DNA of 64,000 nt, from the NCBI GenBank assembly GCA_964490975.1, contig CAZBEQ010000002.1:75900-139899 (forward strand). Reading direction: 5' to 3'. The notes under the pieces are model-generated. The model saw only the letters and a list, made by a program, of their open reading frames with translations. It did no database searches and was not told where the DNA came from. The first letter of the stretch is position 1. Each line of letters begins with the position of its first letter. Below are positions 23,284-36,548 of the stretch, piece by piece. The position numbers were made by a program, and so were the translations under genes. Origin of the DNA: an uncultured Oscillospiraceae bacterium. GTDB taxonomy: Bacteria > Bacillota > Clostridia > Acetivibrionales > DTU013.

Positions 23284-24291
23284 CTAATTAAAAATTCTTC
23301 TGACAGCCACTGCGATCCCATCAGGATTTTCCCTGTTAATATCACCTATAGCAGCATAGCCGGTTTTCCGGCCTGCATAAATGAAACTGCCATCCCCGAT
23401 GTATATGCCGGAACATGTTATGCTATCCATATCATTTTCTCCGGTACCCGACATGAAAACAAGATCTCCTGCTTTGGCATCTTCAAGCTCGACCGCAGTT
23501 CCTGTGGACATTTGCCCTTCGACATTAACCGGAAGATTTATTCCGTTAATACGCGCACAAATATAAACAAGACTGGCAGAGTCAATACCCATCGAACTCA
23601 TACCATTGATCATAAAGCTTGTTCCCTTGAACCTGAGAGCTGTTGATGCAAAATCCTCAGCATTTGTAACCAGGATGACATCGCCCACCGGGATACGGAT
23701 AATACCGCTCCCTCCAAGCCATCCTGTTCTGTTGCCGGGTAGAAACACTTCATATGAATCCTCTATATTGTTAAAAGCAAAAAATTCGGTGCCCATTTGA
23801 GCATTGACCAACGTGATACCGCCGTCAGGTCCGGAATTAACAGTCTTTTCCCTGCTTGTGACAATGATCTTGTAGGTATAGACTCTACCCGTAAGGCTCG
23901 ATAGGTCATCACTGATATATCTCGATTTAATCCAACCCGTTATTCCGTTGACTGTTTTGACCTTCGCCCAACCGCCATCATTATTAAATACGCTGACAGG
24001 TTGGTTGCAAAGCACCTGGGAAATGCGTTCCGATTTTACATCCGGTTTATTAAAAATATCAGCAACATTTTCAGTCACAACAGCAGCTTTTTCATTCATT
24101 GGTATCCCGTAGATATACTCCACTTCCTGACCTGTACTGTCTCCCGAATCGCCGGCGTCACTGCTGACCGTTGCAGACACCTGTGTATCCTTACCCTCGC
24201 AGCCGCCAAGTAATGCTGCCAAAAGCAACACGCCTGCAATCATCAGACCTGTAAAAATTTTTTTACATTCACCCTTGTAAAGGCTCCTCAT
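23284..24291 (-). CDS. lipoprotein with SH3b-like and NlpC/P60-like domains, catalytic residues substituted
   Basis: Lipobox LLGGC. The NlpC/P60 block aligns by eye but reads GIDSAS (not DCSG), CSGIYIG (not HxGIYIG) and FIYA (not FIHA). Confidence 0.8.
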   Translation of the reverse strand: MRSLYKGECKKIFTGLMIAGVLLLAALLGGCEGKDTQVSATVSSDAGDSGDSTGQEVEYIYGIPMNEKAAVVTENVADIFNKPDVKSERISQVLCNQPVSVFNNDGGWAKVKTVNGITGWIKSRYISDDLSSLTGRVYTYKIIVTSREKTVNSGPDGGITLVNAQMGTEFFAFNNIEDSYEVFLPGNRTGWLGGSGIIRIPVGDVILVTNAEDFASTALRFKGTSFMINGMSSMGIDSASLVYICARINGINLPVNVEGQMSTGTAVELEDAKAGDLVFMSGTGENDMDSITCSGIYIGDGSFIYAGRKTGYAAIGDINRENPDGIAVAVRRIFN

Positions 24292-26311
24292 ACCCCAACT
24301 CCACCAAATTTATTCTGTTCCCGAATATATGGCCAGCCAGCTCTACCTCACGGCGTTTACATGTAAGAATGAATATCTGGCTGTCTCTGTACTCGTTATG
24401 TAGATATTCTAACGCAAGAGCGGTCCTGTTGTCATCAAGCTGTGAAAAAACTTCATCCATAATCAAAGGCAGGCGTTCTGAACCTGACGTCAATATATCT
24501 GTCATAGCAAGCCTCATAGCAAGGTACATCTGGTCCGCAGTACCACCGCTTAGCAAAAGCGCGTTTTTCACTTCTCCGAAACCTGGTACTGCAACCCTCA
24601 GGGACAGCTCCCCATCACCTCTCAGGTCTTCATACCTTTGTCCTGTAAGGCCCGCAACTATACTGCTCATTCTGTTGTTCAAACCAGGCGCAAAATCGTG
24701 TCTTATTTCCATGCTTGCTTCCGAAAGCACATCAAGAGCAAGCTTTATTGCATTTCCCTTGCTTCTAAGATACGCGATTTTCTCTTTTACCGCAACGGTT
24801 TCTTCTTCCACACGCGCAAGCTCATCGGAGTTTTCCCTCTCATCATCAGCCATGCCTTCAAAGTACTTTCCCCTCAGCGCTGTCTCGAGCAATTCTTTTT
24901 TAACGCTTTCGTTTACAGTCTTCAGCATTGCCTCAAGGCTGGCAATATCGGTATCATATATAAGTATATCCAGGTCCTCCCTGGCAAAGCTGTCCTCTCT
25001 GCCATATTCCATAGTCAACACTTCATCAAGTCCTTGCTGCAGTTGAGAGCTTAACTCCTCCAGCTCTGTTTGCACATCCCTTACCGCATTTCTGACATCT
25101 TCCATGTCATCGAGTCTGTTGCCATAAATCAAAGAAGCGCTGTTCAAAGTATTCCTTCTTATCATGGCAAGACCTTCGGACCCCTCCCTGGATATATCCC
25201 CATACGTTTGACAGGAAACTGTGCCCTTTAAGACTTTTTTCAGATTTACAGCTCCAACGATTAATGCCACAAGCATGATCAGCACATATAGATAAATCTG
25301 TGTGGGTAAGCTTTCCTGCCACTGGCCTGCGCCCTTATAAACCAGCAGTGCGCAAGAAATCAAGGCAGCGGCAGAAAGAATCAGCATAATGTAGTCGGCA
25401 GTTTTACCAGAACGGCCCGTATTTTTGGCAGCAGTGTCCTTGCGCTCCATGGTTTCTGCGATCCGCCTCTCTATATCCTCCAGCAATGCTGCCGTTTCCC
25501 TGAGATTAGCCTCCTTTTTTATACCTGCATCTATCTTCTTTCTCATCTCAATAAGCGCAGCTACTTTTGTCAGATATAATTCCTGCGCCTCCAGCGTGCC
25601 AAGGCGGCCCCTTACGTCAGCAAGCTCTTCCTTCCCGGCATACCTCTGCTTTTGTCTGGCGGACAACCTTGCATGCTCATCTTCGAGCTGCTTCAGCCTT
25701 GCTTCCAGCTTGTCCAGCGGCTGTGTCGTTGTCCTGCCAGTCCCGATCCGGTTTCTGAGCGCATTGGATAGAGCTGCCTCAGCTCTCTGGAAGGACATTC
25801 CCTCTACGCCGGTATCATTTGCATTGGAAAGCCTGGCTGCCAGTTCAGACGAATCGTTTGCGCTGATCCTGACATCCATCTGGCTAACAAAAGCAGTCCT
25901 TTTAAAGGTTGCTTCATCCATCCCCAGATGCTCATCCGCAAACAAGGGCTGCTTTTCTTTCCCAAGCCTGAATTCCCCGGAAATATCATGATAATTGCTA
26001 TCATACAAGCAAATTGAATTCTTGTTAAAATCCCGCTCAACTCGATACATGGAGCCATTATCAAGCGTATATGTGATTGAACCTCCGTATGGTAACCCAT
26101 CCCATGGCATGTACCTCTTCTGCGCAGGCGGAAGGCCGGATGCGGAATTACGTCCGCTCCTGATCCCGTAAAACATAGCTCTGATGAACCTCTGCAATGT
26201 CGATTTACCGGCTTCATTAGAACCAAATATAATGTTAAGACCGCTGTCTGGAGAGATCACCAGGTTTCTGATTTTTCCAAACCCCTTGATTTCGATCCTC
26301 TCTATACGCAT
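24269..26311 (-). CDS. SbcC/YhaN-like AAA ATPase with central TM segment and coiled coils
   Basis: Walker A GSNEAGKST at the N-terminus, a long coiled coil, two TM helices mid-protein, and a C-terminal signature/Walker B region (LLLSGGTADQ, PLIMDEVF). Confidence 0.8.
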   Translation of the reverse strand: MRIERIEIKGFGKIRNLVISPDSGLNIIFGSNEAGKSTLQRFIRAMFYGIRSGRNSASGLPPAQKRYMPWDGLPYGGSITYTLDNGSMYRVERDFNKNSICLYDSNYHDISGEFRLGKEKQPLFADEHLGMDEATFKRTAFVSQMDVRISANDSSELAARLSNANDTGVEGMSFQRAEAALSNALRNRIGTGRTTTQPLDKLEARLKQLEDEHARLSARQKQRYAGKEELADVRGRLGTLEAQELYLTKVAALIEMRKKIDAGIKKEANLRETAALLEDIERRIAETMERKDTAAKNTGRSGKTADYIMLILSAAALISCALLVYKGAGQWQESLPTQIYLYVLIMLVALIVGAVNLKKVLKGTVSCQTYGDISREGSEGLAMIRRNTLNSASLIYGNRLDDMEDVRNAVRDVQTELEELSSQLQQGLDEVLTMEYGREDSFAREDLDILIYDTDIASLEAMLKTVNESVKKELLETALRGKYFEGMADDERENSDELARVEEETVAVKEKIAYLRSKGNAIKLALDVLSEASMEIRHDFAPGLNNRMSSIVAGLTGQRYEDLRGDGELSLRVAVPGFGEVKNALLLSGGTADQMYLAMRLAMTDILTSGSERLPLIMDEVFSQLDDNRTALALEYLHNEYRDSQIFILTCKRREVELAGHIFGNRINLVELGYEEPLQG

Positions 26312-27411
26312 ACCTTACCCTCGTCAATTGCCTCCAGTCCATAATAAAGCGCCTGCATTAACAGCTTGGCATCTTCCTCATCAGCCTTTGCAGCCCTAGC
26401 AAGCATTTTTCTTGTAAACAGCCCCCTGAGTCCCTGCTCCTGTGAGATTTGCTTCAAATCATAATCAGGTACAGTATTATCTATAACCCTGATATAAAAT
26501 GCCTTTCCGGTTAACAGCTCTGCAACTGCTTCAACGTCCAGCCTGATATCGGACGGTACCCGGCCATTTAGAAATATCCTGAAAATATCCTCTCCGCTCC
26601 CTGTCTTATCCATTTCAGCGGCAGCACTGACCGCTGCCTGCTCATTATTGAGGCATCCGCTGACATCTGCAGCAAGATTGATGGCGCGCCTTGAGCAAAG
26701 CTTTATAAATTTAGTTTCTATAATAGCTTTATTACCAGACTTCTTTTCAATGACAGACAAGTATGCGCCATGCTCTCCCTCTTCATCAAAGCCAAGCGGT
26801 TCAGGACTGCCTGCATTATAAAAAATGCCGCCGGGACCTGCACCTAATATCCTGGAGTGGAAATGCCCCAGAGCGCAGTAATCGAAGCCCTGTCCCGCGA
26901 TCTCCCTGCCGGATATGGGGTTGAATGCGCCTGCGCTGAACGGCATGTCCAATGTCCCATGGTGCATCAGAATATTGATAAATGACGGATCTGTAACTCC
27001 GCAGGCTGAACCTCCATAGACTCTGGCGCCTGAAGAAGGGTGCTTATAAACATCATTGCTGCCAAGTATATGAACGTTTTTGGGCCACTCATGTTCACTG
27101 TAAAAAGAGCCAGGCATAAACGGATCATGATTCCCCGGTATGATCAGTACCGGTATGCCCTGTATTCTGCTAAATTGGTCGCATATATAGTGTACAGAGC
27201 TTTTTGCCGTATAACCATGTTCATACAGATCTCCGCAAACAAGCACAAGATCAGGATTCTTACTCAATGCCAGATCAATTATCCTTGACAGTGCACCCTT
27301 TAGATCCTGCCTCCTTTTAACAGGCTTTCCCTCCATATCCGAAAGCGTTGTGAAAGGAGCATCCAAATGAAGATCTCCGAACTGGAGCAGCTTGACCCTC
27401 ATCCCATCCAC
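26302..27411 (-). CDS. SbcD/YhaO-like metallophosphoesterase (DNA repair exonuclease)
   Basis: Calcineurin-like motifs GDLHLD, CGDLYE, GNHD and GHFH. Overlaps the downstream ATPase gene by 10 nt. Confidence 0.85.
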   Translation of the reverse strand: MDGMRVKLLQFGDLHLDAPFTTLSDMEGKPVKRRQDLKGALSRIIDLALSKNPDLVLVCGDLYEHGYTAKSSVHYICDQFSRIQGIPVLIIPGNHDPFMPGSFYSEHEWPKNVHILGSNDVYKHPSSGARVYGGSACGVTDPSFINILMHHGTLDMPFSAGAFNPISGREIAGQGFDYCALGHFHSRILGAGPGGIFYNAGSPEPLGFDEEGEHGAYLSVIEKKSGNKAIIETKFIKLCSRRAINLAADVSGCLNNEQAAVSAAAEMDKTGSGEDIFRIFLNGRVPSDIRLDVEAVAELLTGKAFYIRVIDNTVPDYDLKQISQEQGLRGLFTRKMLARAAKADEEDAKLLMQALYYGLEAIDEGKVCV

Positions 27412-27792: not shown

Positions 27793-27949
27793 TTACTATT
27801 CCCAGGCTCCTTTTCACATTCTTTCATTTTGACTATCGGAATTGCATAAGTGTTCCTTTAACACATTCCACCTTAAATGAAAAAGGGGGCGTGAAATCAG
27901 TTCTGATAATTTCCCGGCCCCTGTAATAATTTTAAATGGTTATGAGAGA

Positions 27950-28780
27950 CTACATCCTCAGTTTATTCCTGCGTCTGTCTTCAAGCACCGAGTCGAGCGC
28001 CTCCGCCTCATTGACTGCTGTTTCCAACTGCTCAAGCATTTCCTCGTTTTCGACACTGGACATGATCTGGTGCTTGAACATATTCACCGTGCTTTCCATA
28101 TAATCAAGCTTCGCGCTTATCCTCTCCAGATCCTTTTTCTCGTCCTTGAGCCTTCCTATCAGCTTTTCATCCATCTCGATTATCTTCCTGACATCCTCTG
28201 CCATACTGCTGTCCTTGGCAAAGCTCAGCTTCCTGCTGTTATTATTTATCCTGGCTGACACGGCGCCCACATCGACATTGCTAAGCTCACGGCTCCTGAT
28301 GCAGAAATTGTTCAGCAGCTTCAGATAGGCAGTTACAAGATTCAGCGTCTGCTCAACGATTTTTTCCTTGAGATAACTGTGTTCTCCTGTAGAATAGGAG
28401 GTGAAAATATCGTTCTTGTCCTCCATTACCTTTCTGAGCTTCTGCATATAAGTATTATTTGTATTCCTTCTGGCCTCAGAAGAAAGCCTGTTGGCAAGCC
28501 GGTTCAATTCCCTTATGTTCCTGAACTTCTCCTTCTGGTTGAACTCCGTATGGAACTTCTTGCTCAGAAGAGTCTGGACGACAAATATCATATAGACAGC
28601 AATGCTTCCTGTCAAAATAAACGATCCCGGCAGCGCGCCATTTATACCAAATAAACGGGGCAGTGCTGTAGGGTCGCTCCAAAGAGCCGCAAGGATCAAT
28701 GCCGCAGCCAATATCCCCAGGTTCTTTAACTTAAATAATGCGCTCAAAACTATTCTTGCTCTCATAAGGTCAACCACCAT
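27950..28780 (-). CDS. 2-TM membrane protein with long cytoplasmic coiled coil, encoded just after pspA
   Basis: Two N-terminal hydrophobic helices are followed by about 190 aa of charged heptad-like sequence. The gene starts 29 nt after the pspA stop. Confidence 0.65.
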   Translation of the reverse strand: MVVDLMRARIVLSALFKLKNLGILAAALILAALWSDPTALPRLFGINGALPGSFILTGSIAVYMIFVVQTLLSKKFHTEFNQKEKFRNIRELNRLANRLSSEARRNTNNTYMQKLRKVMEDKNDIFTSYSTGEHSYLKEKIVEQTLNLVTAYLKLLNNFCIRSRELSNVDVGAVSARINNNSRKLSFAKDSSMAEDVRKIIEMDEKLIGRLKDEKKDLERISAKLDYMESTVNMFKHQIMSSVENEEMLEQLETAVNEAEALDSVLEDRRRNKLRM

Positions 28781-28808
28781 TCCTGCATTTATACAAAAAC
28801 TATCACAA

Positions 28809-29537
28809 TTACTGTGAAACCTTGTTCTCAGTCTTTTCCTTCACTTCAAAACCCTGCTCGTTTCCGAGAAGTGCCTCAGCTCTAGCTCTGGCCCTGTCTC
28901 TTGCAGAGTTCATGTCAAGCCTCTTGAGCTTGAGATCCATATTTGTATCTCCAAGTGACTCCACTGCATTGGCGCGGGCAGTCTTTTTATTGACAAGCTC
29001 TCTTGCTCTGTCCATGCTTTCATTCACACTGCCGACAGTGTTGCTTCTGGAGGTATATTTTGCATTGACTGAATTGATATTCTCCCTGAGCTGCGCCATC
29101 TTAGCCTGCGATTTCAGCGTCTTGAGCTCATTGAGCTTGGCATTCATCTCAGACTCGAATATCTTGTAGTCCTCCCTGATCTTCGCCACTTCAGCCATTG
29201 CTGTATCATAAGTAGCCTTATGGGTATCATATGTAGCCTGATATTCTTCCTCCTGCATGAGCAGCTCTATCAAAAGCTCTCTGTCTCCCTGCTTCTGAGC
29301 AGATTCTGCCCTTGCCTTGACAGTTGCCAGATTCTTTTCAGCATTCCTCATTTCGATCTTGATCATTTCGGCATTGGTCTGTATCTCCAGAATCTGCTGC
29401 TCTGCTTCCTTTCTAGCCCTGTCTATCTGCATCTTGATATCCTCAAATAATAGTTCCGGATTACTCTCCTCCACGCCTCCAAGCAATGTACCGAAGAAAC
29501 CCCTTATCAAAGCGCCCAGTCTACTGAAAAAACCCAT
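28809..29537 (-). CDS. pspA: PspA/IM30 (Vipp1) family protein
   Basis: MGFFSRLGALIRGFF amphipathic N-helix followed by PspA-type coiled coils (NPELLFEDIKMQIDRARKEAEQQ...). GGGAGG lies 8 nt before the ATG at 29537. Confidence 0.88.
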   Translation of the reverse strand: MGFFSRLGALIRGFFGTLLGGVEESNPELLFEDIKMQIDRARKEAEQQILEIQTNAEMIKIEMRNAEKNLATVKARAESAQKQGDRELLIELLMQEEEYQATYDTHKATYDTAMAEVAKIREDYKIFESEMNAKLNELKTLKSQAKMAQLRENINSVNAKYTSRSNTVGSVNESMDRARELVNKKTARANAVESLGDTNMDLKLKRLDMNSARDRARARAEALLGNEQGFEVKEKTENKVSQ

Positions 29538-29693
29538 ATTTGCTGCCTCCCTGTTTATTTTATTGTTACGTAAGACCATTTTTGTATATATTAAATTTAT
29601 AATAAATAATGACCGATGTAAAGGACAAATGTATGGTGACACTCCTCCCTGCAGACGCTTTTCGGAATCGGCAGCCCTGGCGATTCAACATAA

Positions 29694-31331
29694 TCATCTT
29701 TCATCTGACATGTTTTTATTGTCCAGGAGTCCTTTGTACTTCTCCGGCAATAAATCCTTGTCGTCGCATTCATCAATAGCCAGCATCGTCATGAATTGTA
29801 CCTGCTGCGTACTTGGACGGCATCTTTTTATTGCCTCTGACATTATTTCCGCAGTAAGAGTATTCCCGTCCAGCTCATCCTCGTTTGCCAGTTCATAGGC
29901 CTTCCTGACAACTGTTTCTATCTCGGCGCCGGTATAGTTTTCCGTTTCTTGCGCAAATGGCATGAAGTCTTCTATGTTAGTGTCAAAGCCATATTTCTTT
30001 ACTATAATGCCGAAAATGTCCGCCCGCTCCTCAGCATCCGGCAGAAGTATAGGTATCTTCTTGTCGAACCTTCCCGCTCTTTTCAAAGCAGGATCTATAA
30101 GATCGGGCCTGTTAGTCGCAGCAATAAATATAACCTTTCCCCTATTATTTGTATTACCGGTGAACTGTAAAAATTCACTGAATATATTCCTGCTCACACC
30201 GCTGTCTCCGCTGTCTCCTCTACGGAAGGCCGTATCGATCTCATCTACGAAAACTATTACAGGATGCTGTGATTGTGCGCCAAGCAGGCACTTTTTGAAG
30301 TTCTTCTCGCTCTCGCCCACATACTGTCCAAGTATCCTTGACATATCGATCTTTACGCAGTTAAAGCCGCTTGCCTTTGCCAGCGCGTTGACCAGAAGTG
30401 TCTTGCCCGTACCGGAAGGCCCGCATAGCAATATTCCCATAGGGACCCTTCTGAGGTCACCCTTCATTATGGGTTTGACTATGTTTTTGAGAAGATAGTC
30501 CTTTGCCTTTTCCATTCCGCCTATGTTCTCAAAATCCAGCTCCGGATATATAAACTCCAGAACATCCCCATATTCCTTTTGGAGAACTGAGTGCTTCTTA
30601 TCTTTAATAAATTCGAAGCTGATAGGTATATCCTCCGCCTCGGATTTCAACTTGATATCCTTTATTGATTTCTTACTCAATCCAGAGGAAAGCTTTGAAA
30701 ACTCATCTGAAGTTATTTCAGTCTTAACTTCATTGTCCTTCAGAAGATATTCGATATAGTCCTTGCGCTGCTTCTCATCCGGCAGTCCGACAAATATCGG
30801 CTCGATCCTGTAGGATGATTTTAGCAGCTCACGGCTGACATCAGCCAGATTATCCGAAAGCATCGTGATACAGCTGCCAACAGAAGATATCTTTGCACTG
30901 ACTGACCATTCGCAGATCCATATCAAAGATATCCTTTCCTCAAGTGTCATACTGGCAATATCACCTGCAGGTATTATCTTTTCCACATGATCGATAAAGA
31001 GCATCATTTTTGTATTCTTCAATGCCTTATCGATATAAGGGAACAGCTTTGACGGCATCGCGTTCATCAAATTAGCTGCTTCATTGGAGGTTATTATGTT
31101 GAACTCCTTTTCCATTCCCGCATCAAAGAAAGTCAACCCTCTTGAAATGTCATAAAAGGCAACGATCCCAAAGCCCCTGGCTTTTATGAATTCCTCGTAG
31201 ATATACCTGTCCATGTATCTGTAATTATCCACCAGATCACGGACATTGAAATAAAACAGAAACTCATGGGAAATGCCTGACTTGTATTTACTTAAAAAGC
31301 TATCGTACCAAAATTCTCCGGATGACACCAT
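29694..31331 (-). CDS. classic-clade AAA+ ATPase with a degenerate N-terminal AAA-like half
   Basis: Walker A GPSGTGKT, Walker B VIVFVDEID, SRH ATNRPDLIDPALKRAGRFD. The N-terminal ~290 aa lack a P-loop. AGGAGGGA precedes the ATG at 31331. Confidence 0.85.
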   Translation of the reverse strand: MVSSGEFWYDSFLSKYKSGISHEFLFYFNVRDLVDNYRYMDRYIYEEFIKARGFGIVAFYDISRGLTFFDAGMEKEFNIITSNEAANLMNAMPSKLFPYIDKALKNTKMMLFIDHVEKIIPAGDIASMTLEERISLIWICEWSVSAKISSVGSCITMLSDNLADVSRELLKSSYRIEPIFVGLPDEKQRKDYIEYLLKDNEVKTEITSDEFSKLSSGLSKKSIKDIKLKSEAEDIPISFEFIKDKKHSVLQKEYGDVLEFIYPELDFENIGGMEKAKDYLLKNIVKPIMKGDLRRVPMGILLCGPSGTGKTLLVNALAKASGFNCVKIDMSRILGQYVGESEKNFKKCLLGAQSQHPVIVFVDEIDTAFRRGDSGDSGVSRNIFSEFLQFTGNTNNRGKVIFIAATNRPDLIDPALKRAGRFDKKIPILLPDAEERADIFGIIVKKYGFDTNIEDFMPFAQETENYTGAEIETVVRKAYELANEDELDGNTLTAEIMSEAIKRCRPSTQQVQFMTMLAIDECDDKDLLPEKYKGLLDNKNMSDER

Positions 31332-31501
31332 AATCCCTCCTGTATTGCACACTGCCTGTAAGCCTGCTGCTGTTATTCCCAAGCTTTAAAAAAGCAATGC
31401 AAACAATTATACGTTAAATACTTTTAAATGTTTTATCTATCAATAATTTTTTATTCACAAAATGTGAACAATACTGACATAATAATTTATTGGAGGATTT
31501 T

Positions 31502-31708
31502 ATGCAAGCAACCTTTACAGTACCCTCGGTCACCTGCAGTATATGCTCCGGCCGTATCAGGAACGAGCTGGGCGGCATGGAAGGAATCCAGGGTGTCGAT
31601 GTGGATCTGAAAATACAGTCTGTAAAAGTATCCTACGATCCTGAGCTTCGCAAACCCGGTGATATAAGTAAAAAAATTGCGGAGATGGGCTACGAAGTTA
31701 TACCGTAG
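31502..31708 (+). CDS. heavy-metal-associated (HMA) domain protein, CopZ-like
   Basis: 68 aa with a TCSIC metal-binding motif in a ferredoxin-like betaalphabetabetaalphabeta pattern. GGAGG lies 5 nt upstream. Confidence 0.75.
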   Translation: MQATFTVPSVTCSICSGRIRNELGGMEGIQGVDVDLKIQSVKVSYDPELRKPGDISKKIAEMGYEVIP

Positions 31709-33505: not shown

Positions 33506-35071
33506 TTACATTTTTTTCATTATGATTATCTGGCTCCCGGGCACAGGATCTTCATTCTCATCAATACCATTGCTCCTGATGAGCTCGCTGACCGTCGTAT
33601 AATATCTCTTTGCTATCTTCCAGAGGTTATCACCCGGCTGTGTAAAGTAAATCGTTACACTCGGCTGGCTGGCCATCCTTTCGTCATCAGAGGGCTGTTC
33701 AGCTGCTTTTATAATTACCGGCACACTGACCTGCTTGCCGACTCTCGTCTTCACGCCGACAAGCAGCCGTACCTCGATATCTCTTGAATTGAGTATACTG
33801 TAGCTGTAATGGTCAATATCCATTTCGACATCAAGAGACATTCCCTCCCTGACGCCTTTCACCTCTATTACCTGGCTGAACGGGATCTCACGTTCAATAC
33901 AGTAAACCGGTTTTTCCTCGTTGGCTGCAAGGTAGAGCACATTACATACCGCAACACCTTCAACAGCTATACGGTCATCGAATATTTCACTGGAGGAAAG
34001 TGAAAGTCTGCCAATAATGTTAAACAACTCCGATATATCCGGGGCGCCCTCATCCATCTCAATGTTTTCCTTGAGTGTCAGCTGGCTTAGATTCTCTGTT
34101 ACAAGCTCTTCAAGCATCAGCTGATCCTTCTCGAAACTCACTCTGGAGCCGGGATTATATGCATCATCAACAATTTCTATTTCCTTCCTGCCACAGCTCT
34201 GTGCGTAGATGCTAAGCTCTGCTTCACATTTGAGCTTTCTGAGTTCGCCGTCGCCATCCTCATCCGCTTCAAAGTTCATTTCTCCCAAGGCAATATCAAC
34301 ATCGCAGGAGCAATCGTCATTTGCACCGGGCATATTGATCATCTGGGCAAATGGTATCTCATGTTCCATAAACTGAATACTCCGACTTTCATCATCGCCG
34401 ATATAAAGCGTGGAAACATTCAACTCGCCCTTGACGATTATCTTATCATCGCCTGCCTTAAATTCCTTGCCGGCAATTTTTACATCATTCCTTAGTATTT
34501 CCAGAATAGCCGGCTTTCCGGCAGGTATATCGGCGATCTCTTTGACATCGCATTCTGCCTTGCTGTTGCCAATATATGAATTAATATTTATAGTGTTTCT
34601 AAGTATCTGTATTCCTTCTGATCCTTCAAAGTCTTTTGTAATATACTGTTCAAGCTGTTCAGAAACTCTCGCGGACAGACTGACAATGGCTTTTACATTA
34701 ACCTTTCTGCTGTTTAGTATCTCGTATTCCATGTGTTCAATATCACACTTTACCCTGCATTGCATACCCTGCCTGGTATCTGGTATATCCATCCCATATT
34801 GGAATCCTGTAGTGGTTTTTATGCTTTTCACAGGTTGATCGGGATCATCCGAAACATACAGGATCTTGTATCTGACCATACCGTTGATCAGTACCTTTCC
34901 TGCCGCAGTATCGGCACCGCTTATCCAGGCATCTCCATCGAGCAGCAATATGCGCGCAATGTCCGGCTTTATATCCGGTACTATGATATCATTTTCAACT
35001 ATAGTCTGCGTAGAATCCTCACCTATAGGTCGATTAAGCCTTACGGCCTCTTTTAACAATTCCAGAGACAT
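33506..35071 (-). CDS. DUF3794/SPOCS repeat protein with C-terminal LysM domain (sporulation-associated type)
   Basis: Repeated beta-rich modules and a terminal LysM (YFTQPGDNLWKIAKRYYTTVSELIRSNG). GGAGGA precedes the ATG at 35071. Confidence 0.75.
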   Translation of the reverse strand: MSLELLKEAVRLNRPIGEDSTQTIVENDIIVPDIKPDIARILLLDGDAWISGADTAAGKVLINGMVRYKILYVSDDPDQPVKSIKTTTGFQYGMDIPDTRQGMQCRVKCDIEHMEYEILNSRKVNVKAIVSLSARVSEQLEQYITKDFEGSEGIQILRNTININSYIGNSKAECDVKEIADIPAGKPAILEILRNDVKIAGKEFKAGDDKIIVKGELNVSTLYIGDDESRSIQFMEHEIPFAQMINMPGANDDCSCDVDIALGEMNFEADEDGDGELRKLKCEAELSIYAQSCGRKEIEIVDDAYNPGSRVSFEKDQLMLEELVTENLSQLTLKENIEMDEGAPDISELFNIIGRLSLSSSEIFDDRIAVEGVAVCNVLYLAANEEKPVYCIEREIPFSQVIEVKGVREGMSLDVEMDIDHYSYSILNSRDIEVRLLVGVKTRVGKQVSVPVIIKAAEQPSDDERMASQPSVTIYFTQPGDNLWKIAKRYYTTVSELIRSNGIDENEDPVPGSQIIIMKKM

Positions 35072-35187
35072 TTGAAATCCTCCCCCCGCATAACAGCATG
35101 CATATATCCTCTCTAAATGTATATTGACAAGACCTATCAAATATTACTGAAAAAATGTGATAAGCAATTGCATTCCGGCACCTGATA

Positions 35188-35222
35188 AGCGAAAACGGCC
35201 CGATCTCATGATCGGGCCGTTT
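35188..35222 (-). terminator. rho-independent terminator of veg
   Basis: Perfect 13-bp stem AAACGGCCCGATC/GATCGGGCCGTTT with a 4-nt loop, followed on the minus strand by TTTTCGCTT. Confidence 0.8.
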
Positions 35223-35255
35223 AAAGGCTATTATGATTTTTTCTCTATCACCATG

Positions 35256-35522
35256 TCAACTGACCAGTATACGTTTATCATCCTTGCAAATAACCAGTTC
35301 CACTGCCTTTGTAAGTACATCCGTATAGCTGTAGGAAACTCTCCTTGTTGTCTCATATTCATTCTCAAACTTGATGATGAAGATGCTGGGATATGAGTTC
35401 TCGATTACTCCTTCTTTAATAAAAGCCTTCTTTCTGCCTTTATTAGCTTTAAGTTGAACTTTTTCGCCAATGCAGGTCTCAATGTTCTTCTTTATTTGAA
35501 ACAGGTCACTCTTTTCAGCCAT
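35256..35522 (-). CDS. veg: Veg protein
   Basis: The 88-aa sequence aligns by eye with B. subtilis Veg (KANKGRKK...YPSIFIIKF...RVSYSYTDVLTKAVEL). Confidence 0.9.
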   Translation of the reverse strand: MAEKSDLFQIKKNIETCIGEKVQLKANKGRKKAFIKEGVIENSYPSIFIIKFENEYETTRRVSYSYTDVLTKAVELVICKDDKRILVS

Positions 35523-35648
35523 TGAATCACCTCATCTTCTGTTTTAAATATTATATCACAAAACACATAGCTTGTCAAAAAAAATTAAATATTATAACAA
35601 GGGAAATTTAATTGTGTCAAGTGTTTTTTTTAAAAAGCTCAAAACCAC

Positions 35649-36548
35649 TTAATGGTAGGGTTCGTTCGGGTAACCTACACGGTACTTTCCCCTAGTTTGA
35701 ACTCCACCGATACCAGTCTTCCCAGTTATAGTATTTTCTATTACATCCTCTGCATCCAAAATTTTTTCAATGCTTGTAAACGCCACTTTCTGGCACACTC
35801 TTACCGGGTCAAGGGCATGTATCAGGTCTCTGAAGGGAGCGCTCGCATAATTGGCGCCTGCATTGATTATTTCCTTGTAAAGCGACTGGCAGGCGCCAGC
35901 AAAAATAACAAGTCCGTCCATATCACTGTTGAACCTTCTGGCTTCCCTTACAGCCTCAATAAAATATCTGGATGTCCTATATGATGCAAGGTTTGTGTAA
36001 CTATCCTGCCCCTTTATAAAGCCATCATGACCGGTGAGCACCAATATATCCGGCCGGTGTTGCGCCAACAGCTCCCCCACCTTCCTCGGCTGGTCTTTTT
36101 CCGGTACATATTCTCCGATAACCTCGATACCCAGTTTTTTATATTCTTCAATACAATTCTCAAGATAATCCTTATCTCCATCCAAGTGGAGTACCTTACC
36201 CGGTCTCTTTATCTTTTCCGTTTCATCATTTGAAGTATCTCTATAAAGTGTTTTTTTTCTGTAGCCCCTGTATTGGGGTAGCGAATAATTGGCATACCTC
36301 GCCGCAAGTCTCTGGTCACCAAAGCATTCCTCAGCCTTTCTGAAACATTTCTCCCTGTATTCTCTCACCCTGTTCTCAGGCTGCAGTTCCAGGTCGGACT
36401 CAGGTGCATCAGCCTCTATCCTGTAGCTGATGCCTTTGAGAGTGATGATTCTTTCACTGCCGGCTTGCGTAATATTGACTATCTTAAAAAAAACATCATA
36501 TCCGTAGGACTTTCTGGCAACGATATCGCCAACTTTTAGATCGCTCAT
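35649..36548 (-). CDS. yabG: sporulation-specific protease YabG
   Basis: MSDLKVGDIVARKSYGYDVFFKI N-terminus and the conserved C-terminal block (LVLTGHDG...FAGACQS). Confidence 0.88.
   Translation of the reverse strand: MSDLKVGDIVARKSYGYDVFFKIVNITQAGSERIITLKGISYRIEADAPESDLELQPENRVREYREKCFRKAEECFGDQRLAARYANYSLPQYRGYRKKTLYRDTSNDETEKIKRPGKVLHLDGDKDYLENCIEEYKKLGIEVIGEYVPEKDQPRKVGELLAQHRPDILVLTGHDGFIKGQDSYTNLASYRTSRYFIEAVREARRFNSDMDGLVIFAGACQSLYKEIINAGANYASAPFRDLIHALDPVRVCQKVAFTSIEKILDAEDVIENTITGKTGIGGVQTRGKYRVGYPNEPYH

Follow-up and report, generated by a model that had tools for sequence, protein, structure and literature searches.

A conserved trio of genes for a tandem AAA+ ATPase, PspA and a two-helix membrane protein in the Acetivibrionales, with a possible role in remodelling an ESCRT-III homologue

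PspA belongs to the ESCRT-III superfamily and polymerises on the stressed membrane by means of its N-terminal amphipathic helix. In the classical Psp systems (E. coli PspF-ABC, B. subtilis LiaIH and Mycobacterium ClgR-PspA-PspM-PspN) this effector is accompanied by a small membrane partner, namely PspB/C, LiaI or PspM. According to the ESCRT reviews of 2023–2025 and the survey of Makarova 2024, bacteria have no Vps4-like partner for PspA or Vipp1 (PMC7615534, PMC7619361, PMC10936438). Ravi et al. (2024, mSystems, PMC11237479; bioRxiv 2020) listed in Clostridium sp. BNL1100 (AEY64320.1/AEY64321.1) the gene context GntR, inactive-AAA+AAA, PspA, described the ATPase as having two AAA+ domains of which the N-terminal one is inactive, and proposed an ATP-dependent remodelling of the Snf7/VPS4 kind; beside such an ATPase in another phylum they reported a 'membrane-anchored divergent Snf7'. 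Here we describe a three-gene locus of this type, found in a stretch of 64,000 nucleotides (the window in what follows) from an uncultured Oscillospiraceae bacterium of the order Acetivibrionales (assembly GCA_964490975.1, contig CAZBEQ010000002.1, positions 75,900 to 139,899).

The three genes, all on the minus strand of the window, code for an AAA+ ATPase of 545 aa (29694..31331), a PspA/IM30 of 242 aa (28809..29537) and a membrane protein of 276 aa that we call TMcc (27950..28780). They are one real and conserved functional module, and its likeliest function, to which we would give a probability of about 0.55, would be that of a motor which works at the membrane and there remodels or extracts assemblies of PspA and/or TMcc. 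The dyad described by Ravi et al. would seem to be this very system, found in a related genus, with the same ATPase architecture, adjacency to PspA, upstream GntR and functional hypothesis. The GNAT gene ('ACET') that they listed after PspA is the one inserted before TMcc in Ruminiclostridium, and their table has no two-helix membrane protein for this clade, whereas here TMcc is the constant third member. That the same function was predicted independently counts in favour of PspA and/or TMcc remodelling. The central idea had been published before as a prediction from genomes and is found here a second time, with detail and testability added; its novelty is low. What is new is the constancy of TMcc and its homology across lineages, the conserved putative promoter of pspA, a variant of the ATPase fused to an M41 protease and the ATPase paralogues in mobile elements.

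The trio had been noticed before in an annotation made from the letters of the window alone (the sequence-only reading), as three co-directional neighbours, and the list of open reading frames (ORFs) confirms this. The ATPase and pspA genes are separated by 156 nt; the third gene was rightly placed very close to pspA, whose stop is followed by a gap of 28 nt. The survey of pspA neighbourhoods proposed there was carried out on one genome per species, scanned with the N-terminal half of the ATPase. This half was found in 122 species and 80 loci were kept, all from one order, 74 of them with enough DNA for scoring the trio by tblastn. The named genera were Acetivibrio, Ruminiclostridium, Pseudobacteroides, Anaerobacterium, Herbivorax and Hungateiclostridiaceae, and many other loci belonged to unclassified metagenome-assembled genomes. 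The order ATPase, PspA, TMcc on the same strand was found in 74/74 of these genome loci, and the trio was intact in all 40 clade metagenome loci with enough DNA. The flanks varied: GntR could be a direct neighbour, lie as far as 5 kb off or be missing, AcpS was adjacent, displaced by 1.8 kb or lacking, and SbcCD differed between loci. In the Ruminiclostridium branch a GNAT gene is found between pspA and TMcc, as in R. hungatei (locus L069, 8504-9007), with the order GntR, AAA, PspA, GNAT and an ATPase 74% identical to that of the window; gaps of ~570 bp, like the one with this insertion, appear in ~15 loci.

Such linkage is far beyond chance, and within the order it was conserved while the surroundings changed. 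It could be argued that the three genes have no functional link and are neighbours only through an order-wide synteny near ispE and sporulation genes, since the 80/80 genome loci come from one order and the upstream SipL-IspE-GntR genes are also widely conserved. However, both flanks have been repeatedly broken and the trio never, and the same families are linked in a different gene order in unrelated GC-rich lineages (described below). The recurrence of these three families in distant lineages, with a homologous TMcc, argues for a module and not for mere synteny, an explanation that is disfavoured and to which we give very little credence. GntR is unlikely to be a member of the module, for it travels with the SipL-IspE block, up to 5 kb from the ATPase; in the window a divergent HMA gene stands between the two. 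No gene for PspB, PspC or PspF was adjacent to the trio. Together with an ATPase that is not PspF-like, this agrees with the earlier proposal of a Psp module independent of PspF, PspB and PspC.

The ATPase starts at the ATG at 31331, preceded by a GGAGGG ribosome-binding site. Its motor cassette (aa 296-510; 29802..30446) is matched in Pfam by AAA at aa 300-428 (E 1e-38) and by AAA_lid_3. It contains Walker A GPSGTGKT at aa 304 (30399-30422), pore loop 1 QYVG at aa 336 (30315-30326), Walker B IVFVDE at aa 359 (30240-30257) and, at aa 405, the second region of homology ATNRPDLIDPALKRAGR with the arginine fingers (30069-30119), so that the elements needed for threading a substrate (Walker A, Walker B, pore loop 1 and arginine fingers) are complete. 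The motifs and the Pfam match support the classic-clade assignment made in the sequence-only reading. The motif scan found only one P-loop in the protein. The N-terminal half (~aa 1-255; 30567..31331) has lost Walker A and carries FIDHVE in the place of Walker B; the protein begins straight with this half, the N-domain of Cdc48 being absent. In Pfam the N-terminal 290 aa matched no family, neither MIT nor CDC48_N or CDC48_2. The AlphaFold model of the full-length ATPase (predicted local distance difference test score, pLDDT, 70) was aligned by Foldseek with the D1-D2 tandems of p97, Cdc48 and NVL over 490-560 of 545 columns (E ~1e-23), the N-terminal half falling on p97 D1, and among 106 examined members of the N-terminal-half family none had a second P-loop. 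The first ~290 aa had been read as an AAA-like half without P-loop, and that is what the model supports; the MIT-like or substrate-recognition fold that was to be looked for there turned out to be a p97-D1-like AAA. The half is, on the model, a degenerate D1 and not an MIT-like recognition fold.

The closest PDB sequences were VAT/Cdc48 (1.9e-80, in two matched stretches, the top one in the D2 of the target). With the NCBIfam models the scores against the cut-offs were 168.6/802.65 bits for CDC48 (TIGR01243), 148-154/500 for PAN (best 153.7), 131.6/600 for FtsH and 130.6/650 for CdvC (NF041006). Pfam gave no match on the ATPase for Sigma54_activat, helix-turn-helix (HTH) families including HTH_8, MIT, Vps4_C or CDC48_N; a motif scan of the whole protein found no GAFTGA; and hydrophobic segments and Peptidase_M41 are both absent. 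The lack of MIT and Vps4_C together with the D1-D2 fold match indicates that the protein is, as far as sequence and model go, a type-II tandem AAA ATPase in which D1 is dead and an MIT domain is missing, and not a Vps4 orthologue. The kinship with Vps4 that had been implied did not hold, the best matches being with the D2 of VAT/Cdc48. An identity as Vps4/CdvC orthologue was ruled out by the tandem layout, by the missing MIT and Vps4_C and by the CdvC score below cut-off, and that as PspF by the absence of GAFTGA, Sigma54_activat and HTH, so the ATPase is not a sigma-54 activator of the PspF type, as had been stated from the start. FtsH was rejected because neither N-terminal transmembrane (TM) helices nor a C-terminal M41 domain are present, and the proteasomal PAN/Mpa/ARC group because the N-terminal half is D1-like and not a coiled coil plus OB, the C-terminus (...NMSDER) has no HbYX motif and the scores fall below cut-off. 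IetA of the anti-phage system Iet (a single cassette of ~370 aa that goes with the IetS protease) was likewise rejected, the match being confined to the generic AAA cassette at aa 296-508.

How far, then, does the locus resemble the described systems? With ESCRT-III/Vps4 (CdvB/CdvC) it shares a gene for a superfamily polymer beside that of an AAA+ motor of the classic clade whose pore loop is aromatic, and a membrane-associated protein encoded alongside, in a role comparable to that of CdvA. It differs in that the ATPase has no MIT domain, Vps4 beta-domain or C-terminal helix, is a D1-D2 tandem with a dead D1, and is nearer in sequence to Cdc48/VAT and PAN than to CdvC. The absence of MIT, of a MIT-interacting motif (MIM) and of Vps4 features, and the greater nearness to Cdc48, make the resemblance to Vps4 one of analogy and not of orthology. 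Cdc48/p97/VAT gives the best sequence and fold matches, and its D1-D2 layout aligns over nearly the whole ATPase, although the latter has no double-psi-barrel N-domain, has lost the Walker A of D1 and scores far below the cut-off. The classical Psp systems have in common with the trio a PspA effector and a membrane partner, but the ATPase lacks the sigma-54 activator and HTH domains and TMcc is unlike PspB, PspC and LiaI-LiaF-TM in Pfam.

PspA matched PF04012 (PspA_IM30) with 44.2 bits against a cut-off of 33.9, residues 3-222 corresponding to positions 2-216 of the 220 of the profile. Its ATG is preceded by a GGGAGG ribosome-binding site and the N-terminus reads MGFFSRLGALIRGFF. The helix alpha0 at the start of the protein, MGFFSRLGALIRGFFG (29472-29537), was kept in 22/22 aligned orthologues, so that the amphipathic N-helix described earlier is well conserved, its amphipathicity being judged from the sequence. 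In the alignment of PspA (A3) the mean column identity was 83% and GFEV was invariant. The C-terminal tail, KLKRLDMNSARDRARARAEA..GFEVKEK (28812-28931), was strongly conserved, and this tail and the N-terminal helix are near-invariant within the clade, which would be expected if these termini were partner-binding surfaces. PspA is also the most conserved protein of the trio, with identities of 64-95% among the clade loci by tblastn, vs 73-94% for the ATPase and 37-92% for TMcc.

TMcc has two hydrophobic segments (~aa 18-35 and 52-72) that, by hydropathy and charge distribution, would form a hairpin of two TM helices (28565-28729). K/R residues abound on either side of the pair, ahead of segment one and beyond segment two. 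From this one would expect both termini to be inside (N-in, C-in) and the conserved C-terminal ~200 residues (27953-28564) to be in the cytoplasm; the predicted topology thus puts the conserved domain on the same side as PspA and the ATPase. The usual start among the homologues is the second Met (28765), giving 271 aa. In the AlphaFold model (pLDDT 78, predicted TM-score 0.65) the protein was all helical. The two TM helices claimed before were found, and in place of the ~190 aa of coiled coil the soluble part is predicted to be a six-helix bundle with no single long coiled coil. The 301 homologues found include none with a name, and the family had no match in Pfam (PspB, PspC and LiaI-LiaF-TM included), NCBIfam or PADLOC; PADLOC gave no match for the neighbouring PspA either. 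When compared by hhalign with the TMcc-like proteins of the distant trios the probability was 94.7% (E 6e-8, 162 columns), indicating at the sequence level a real conserved family, the same one across lineages. A word-indexed search with the TMcc-like profile recovered 19 proteins, again none named.

We also looked for a relationship of TMcc to ESCRT-III. By hhalign the values were 0.1-3.6% against PspA and 0.4-5.5% against Snf7/Shrub, in a test that has no power, since the pair of PspA and Snf7, used as positive control, was not recovered either (0.3%). No Snf7 match at E<=1 was found in four distant TMcc-like proteins, nor any for the 46 aligned TMcc members, in the table of the first member at E<=10 and among the 25 most-matched of 100 families. 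The fold comparison suggested for this protein was run with Foldseek against PDB and showed no ESCRT-III fold, giving only weak matches to generic helical bundles and BAR domains. From sequence and model, a kinship of TMcc with Snf7/ESCRT-III could not be confirmed.

Similar linkages were found outside of the order. In a GC-rich lineage (L081) an ATPase with an N-terminal half 31% identical is followed by PspA (1e-47 with the clade hidden Markov model) and by a helical protein with two TM segments. In L141 and L137 the order is rearranged to PspA (Pfam 1e-28 and 7e-21, respectively), TMcc-like and ATPase, the last two abutting in L141 and having one small ORF between them in L137. In L082 the ATPase directly follows a TMcc-like gene, and the surroundings have no PspA; of the linked lineages seen, 4/5 have PspA. 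The main rival to a remodelling of PspA and/or TMcc assemblies can be judged here: the ATPase would be an extractor for the quality control of membrane proteins, in the manner of FtsH, Msp1 or Cdc48, with TMcc as its receptor or primary substrate, and PspA, whose polymers would not be the substrate, would only seal the membrane during the removal of damaged proteins. The arrangement of L082 fits this, as does that of the rearranged trios, in which it is the TMcc-like gene, and not PspA, that comes between PspA and the ATPase, and one relative of the ATPase has an M41 protease joined to it. On the other hand, in the clade of the window the neighbour of the ATPase is PspA and not TMcc, the identities given above rank PspA first in conservation within the trio, and it is PspA that accompanies the ATPase in four of the five lineages. 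All considered, we regard the quality-control explanation as unlikely, though it deserves more weight than the other rivals.

The fused relative is the ATPase of L137 (P0187, 2008-4173, 721 aa), with an inactive D1, an FtsH-like AAA cassette, a C-terminal Peptidase_M41 and no TM helices, by its domains a soluble FtsH-like protease adjoining PspA and a TMcc-like protein. FtsH-type engines are known to work solely through the threading of substrates. The fusion argues that the family is one of unfoldases that thread the partners to which they are linked. This bears on a further alternative, that the ATPase acts as a holdase, or as a chaperone of assembly, keeping PspA soluble or loading it onto TMcc and thus governing assembly and not disassembly, comparable with PspF-PspA or Hsp70-Vipp1 and with no part in transcription. 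The linkage evidence would fit equally, chaperones or PspF may cycle PspA according to the literature (PMC11746142), and the ATPase has no DNA-binding domain. However, its pore loop and arginine fingers are intact, as is the glutamate of Walker B, and the M41-fused relative points to processive threading rather than to passive binding, making a chaperone of this kind quite improbable.

Upstream of pspA there is a candidate promoter of the sigma-70 type, TTTACA-N17-TAAATT (29594..29622, minus strand), which in its -10 region overlaps the palindrome ATTTAT-T-ATAAAT. In the scan 63/74 loci had the promoter-like site and 50/74 had the palindrome, and they appeared almost nowhere else in 1.8 Mb. 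An alignment of 22 loci indicated that both are conserved across the order and that the intergenic sequence around them is not. The near-perfect palindrome may be the operator of some regulator; it would not seem to resemble an operator of the GntR/FadR type. At the other end, a terminator-like hairpin followed by a U-run 3' of TMcc (27884..27922, minus strand; -15.4 kcal/mol, z -1.96), which a simple scan missed as the stem is interrupted, probably marks the end of a pspA-TMcc transcript. Rfam gave no match in the intergenic regions of the trio. A separate and conserved putative promoter for pspA-TMcc means that both proteins could be expressed apart from the ATPase, and probably in excess over it.

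For the remodelling of PspA and/or TMcc assemblies we would propose the following sequence of events. PspA would polymerise on the stressed membrane through its N-terminal amphipathic helix, where the helical domain of TMcc would probably anchor, nucleate or mark the assembly site from the cytoplasmic side. The ATPase would probably be a hexamer whose dead D1 ring serves as scaffold and docking surface, and the second ring, active and similar to Cdc48 D2, would use the QYVG pore loops for threading polypeptide. Subunits of PspA, and possibly of TMcc, would be extracted by this pulling and the assembly disassembled, recycled or reshaped. This would be a functional parallel to the action of Vps4 on ESCRT-III, by an ATPase of independent origin from a Cdc48-like tandem AAA. 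Gene linkage and analogy make it plausible that the ATPase disassembles PspA polymers, and TMcc may be the membrane adaptor that the sequence-only reading took it for; what we infer are the physical interactions, the identity of the substrate and whether the effect is one of disassembly or of assembly. A wider statement, that some bacteria possess a dedicated ATP-driven remodeller of an ESCRT-III homologue, made of a Cdc48-derived unfoldase independent of Vps4 and two-TM receptors of the TMcc family, fused to a protease in some lineages and extracting or degrading PspA and/or TMcc assemblies, we hold more tentatively, as falling a little short of an even chance.

Several observations weigh against the remodelling function. 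The putative promoter of pspA-TMcc does not require co-transcription with the ATPase. The C-terminal tail of PspA is not kept between distant lineages, no MIM was recognisable in PspA and the ATPase lacks the MIT domain. PspA rods can themselves bind and hydrolyse ATP (PMC11746142), so an external motor is not strictly required. Our literature search found no interaction, localisation or activity experiments on the module, and nothing relevant on expression or phenotype in C. thermocellum. Lastly, the ATPase is found in other company. Twelve context look-ups were made for distant relatives of the N-terminal half, two of them on contigs that were too short; the other ten gave one trio, one case with a TMcc-like gene only, four clear mobile or conjugative contexts, two phage-like ones and two with other partners. 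After the closest ATPase from outside the clade (L132, 3-1862), which shares 59% identity with that of the window, comes a chemoreceptor-like gene with MCP-signal and CZB (zinc-binding) domains and not PspA, its upstream side ending at the edge of the contig.

The N-terminal-half family comprises 687 clusters at 50% identity, mostly of 560-620 aa, and its long members hold inteins with LAGLIDADG domains. A neighbor-joining tree of 106 members was star-like, with too little resolution to tell if the PspA-linked members are a single clade; a word-indexed search for homologues with the N-terminal half returned fragments only. The mobile contexts carry integrase, IS605, SSB, RadC, the coupling protein of a type IV secretion system (T4SS), DUF3150 and DUF1257/DUF2997, the phage-like ones holin and bAvd, and in two further metagenome loci the ATPase is paired with DUF3150. 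These AAA + DUF3150 pairs have an ATPase of the same inactive-D1/active-D2 family (25-40% identity), but the partner DUF3150 lies among SSB, RadC and T4SS genes, with no PspA or TMcc, and some have inteins. Relatives in mobile elements without PspA indicate that the ATPase scaffold is not PspA-specific; to judge from the sequences, it has been re-used with different partners and the link with PspA and TMcc is one branch of the family. Among the loci inspected, L084, L085, L088, L089, L138 and L146 are of the mobile/DUF3150 kind and L091 and L094 phage-like. Several of the mobile-element paralogues have a DUF3150 protein of 420-480 aa as the next gene, some with DUF1257/DUF2997 before, and the ATPase of L132 has a long poly-Q/poly-P N-terminal extension.

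As for the surroundings of the trio in the window, the HMA gene codes for a CopZ-type metal-binding protein of 72 aa (31490-31708, plus strand; CxxC = TCSIC, Pfam HMA 7e-13). Further upstream there are sporulation-type genes on the minus strand (33506-36548), SipL (SPOCS + LysM, 2e-58), Veg (8e-30) and the YabG peptidase (3e-110), after which come ispE and the GntR/FCD regulator. On the other side (24269-27411, minus strand) are an SbcD-like phosphoesterase and an SbcC/SMC-like ATPase of 680 aa, with ORFs overlapping by 10 nt and, in the latter, two apparent hydrophobic helices in the middle of the protein (~aa 305-355). The pair may be comparable with YhaO/YhaN of B. subtilis.

If a dedicated remodeller of this kind does exist, it would overturn the statement in the reviews that bacterial ESCRT-III lacks an equivalent of Vps4. 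If PspA is remodelled by the ATPase, ancestors of the Cdc48 kind would have given rise to motor-driven dynamics of ESCRT-III on at least two occasions. The module offers a compact test system of three genes in cellulolytic clostridia (Acetivibrio, Ruminiclostridium and Pseudobacteroides) that are cultivable and in part genetically tractable, and it bears on how the ESCRT-III polymers of bacteria are disassembled.

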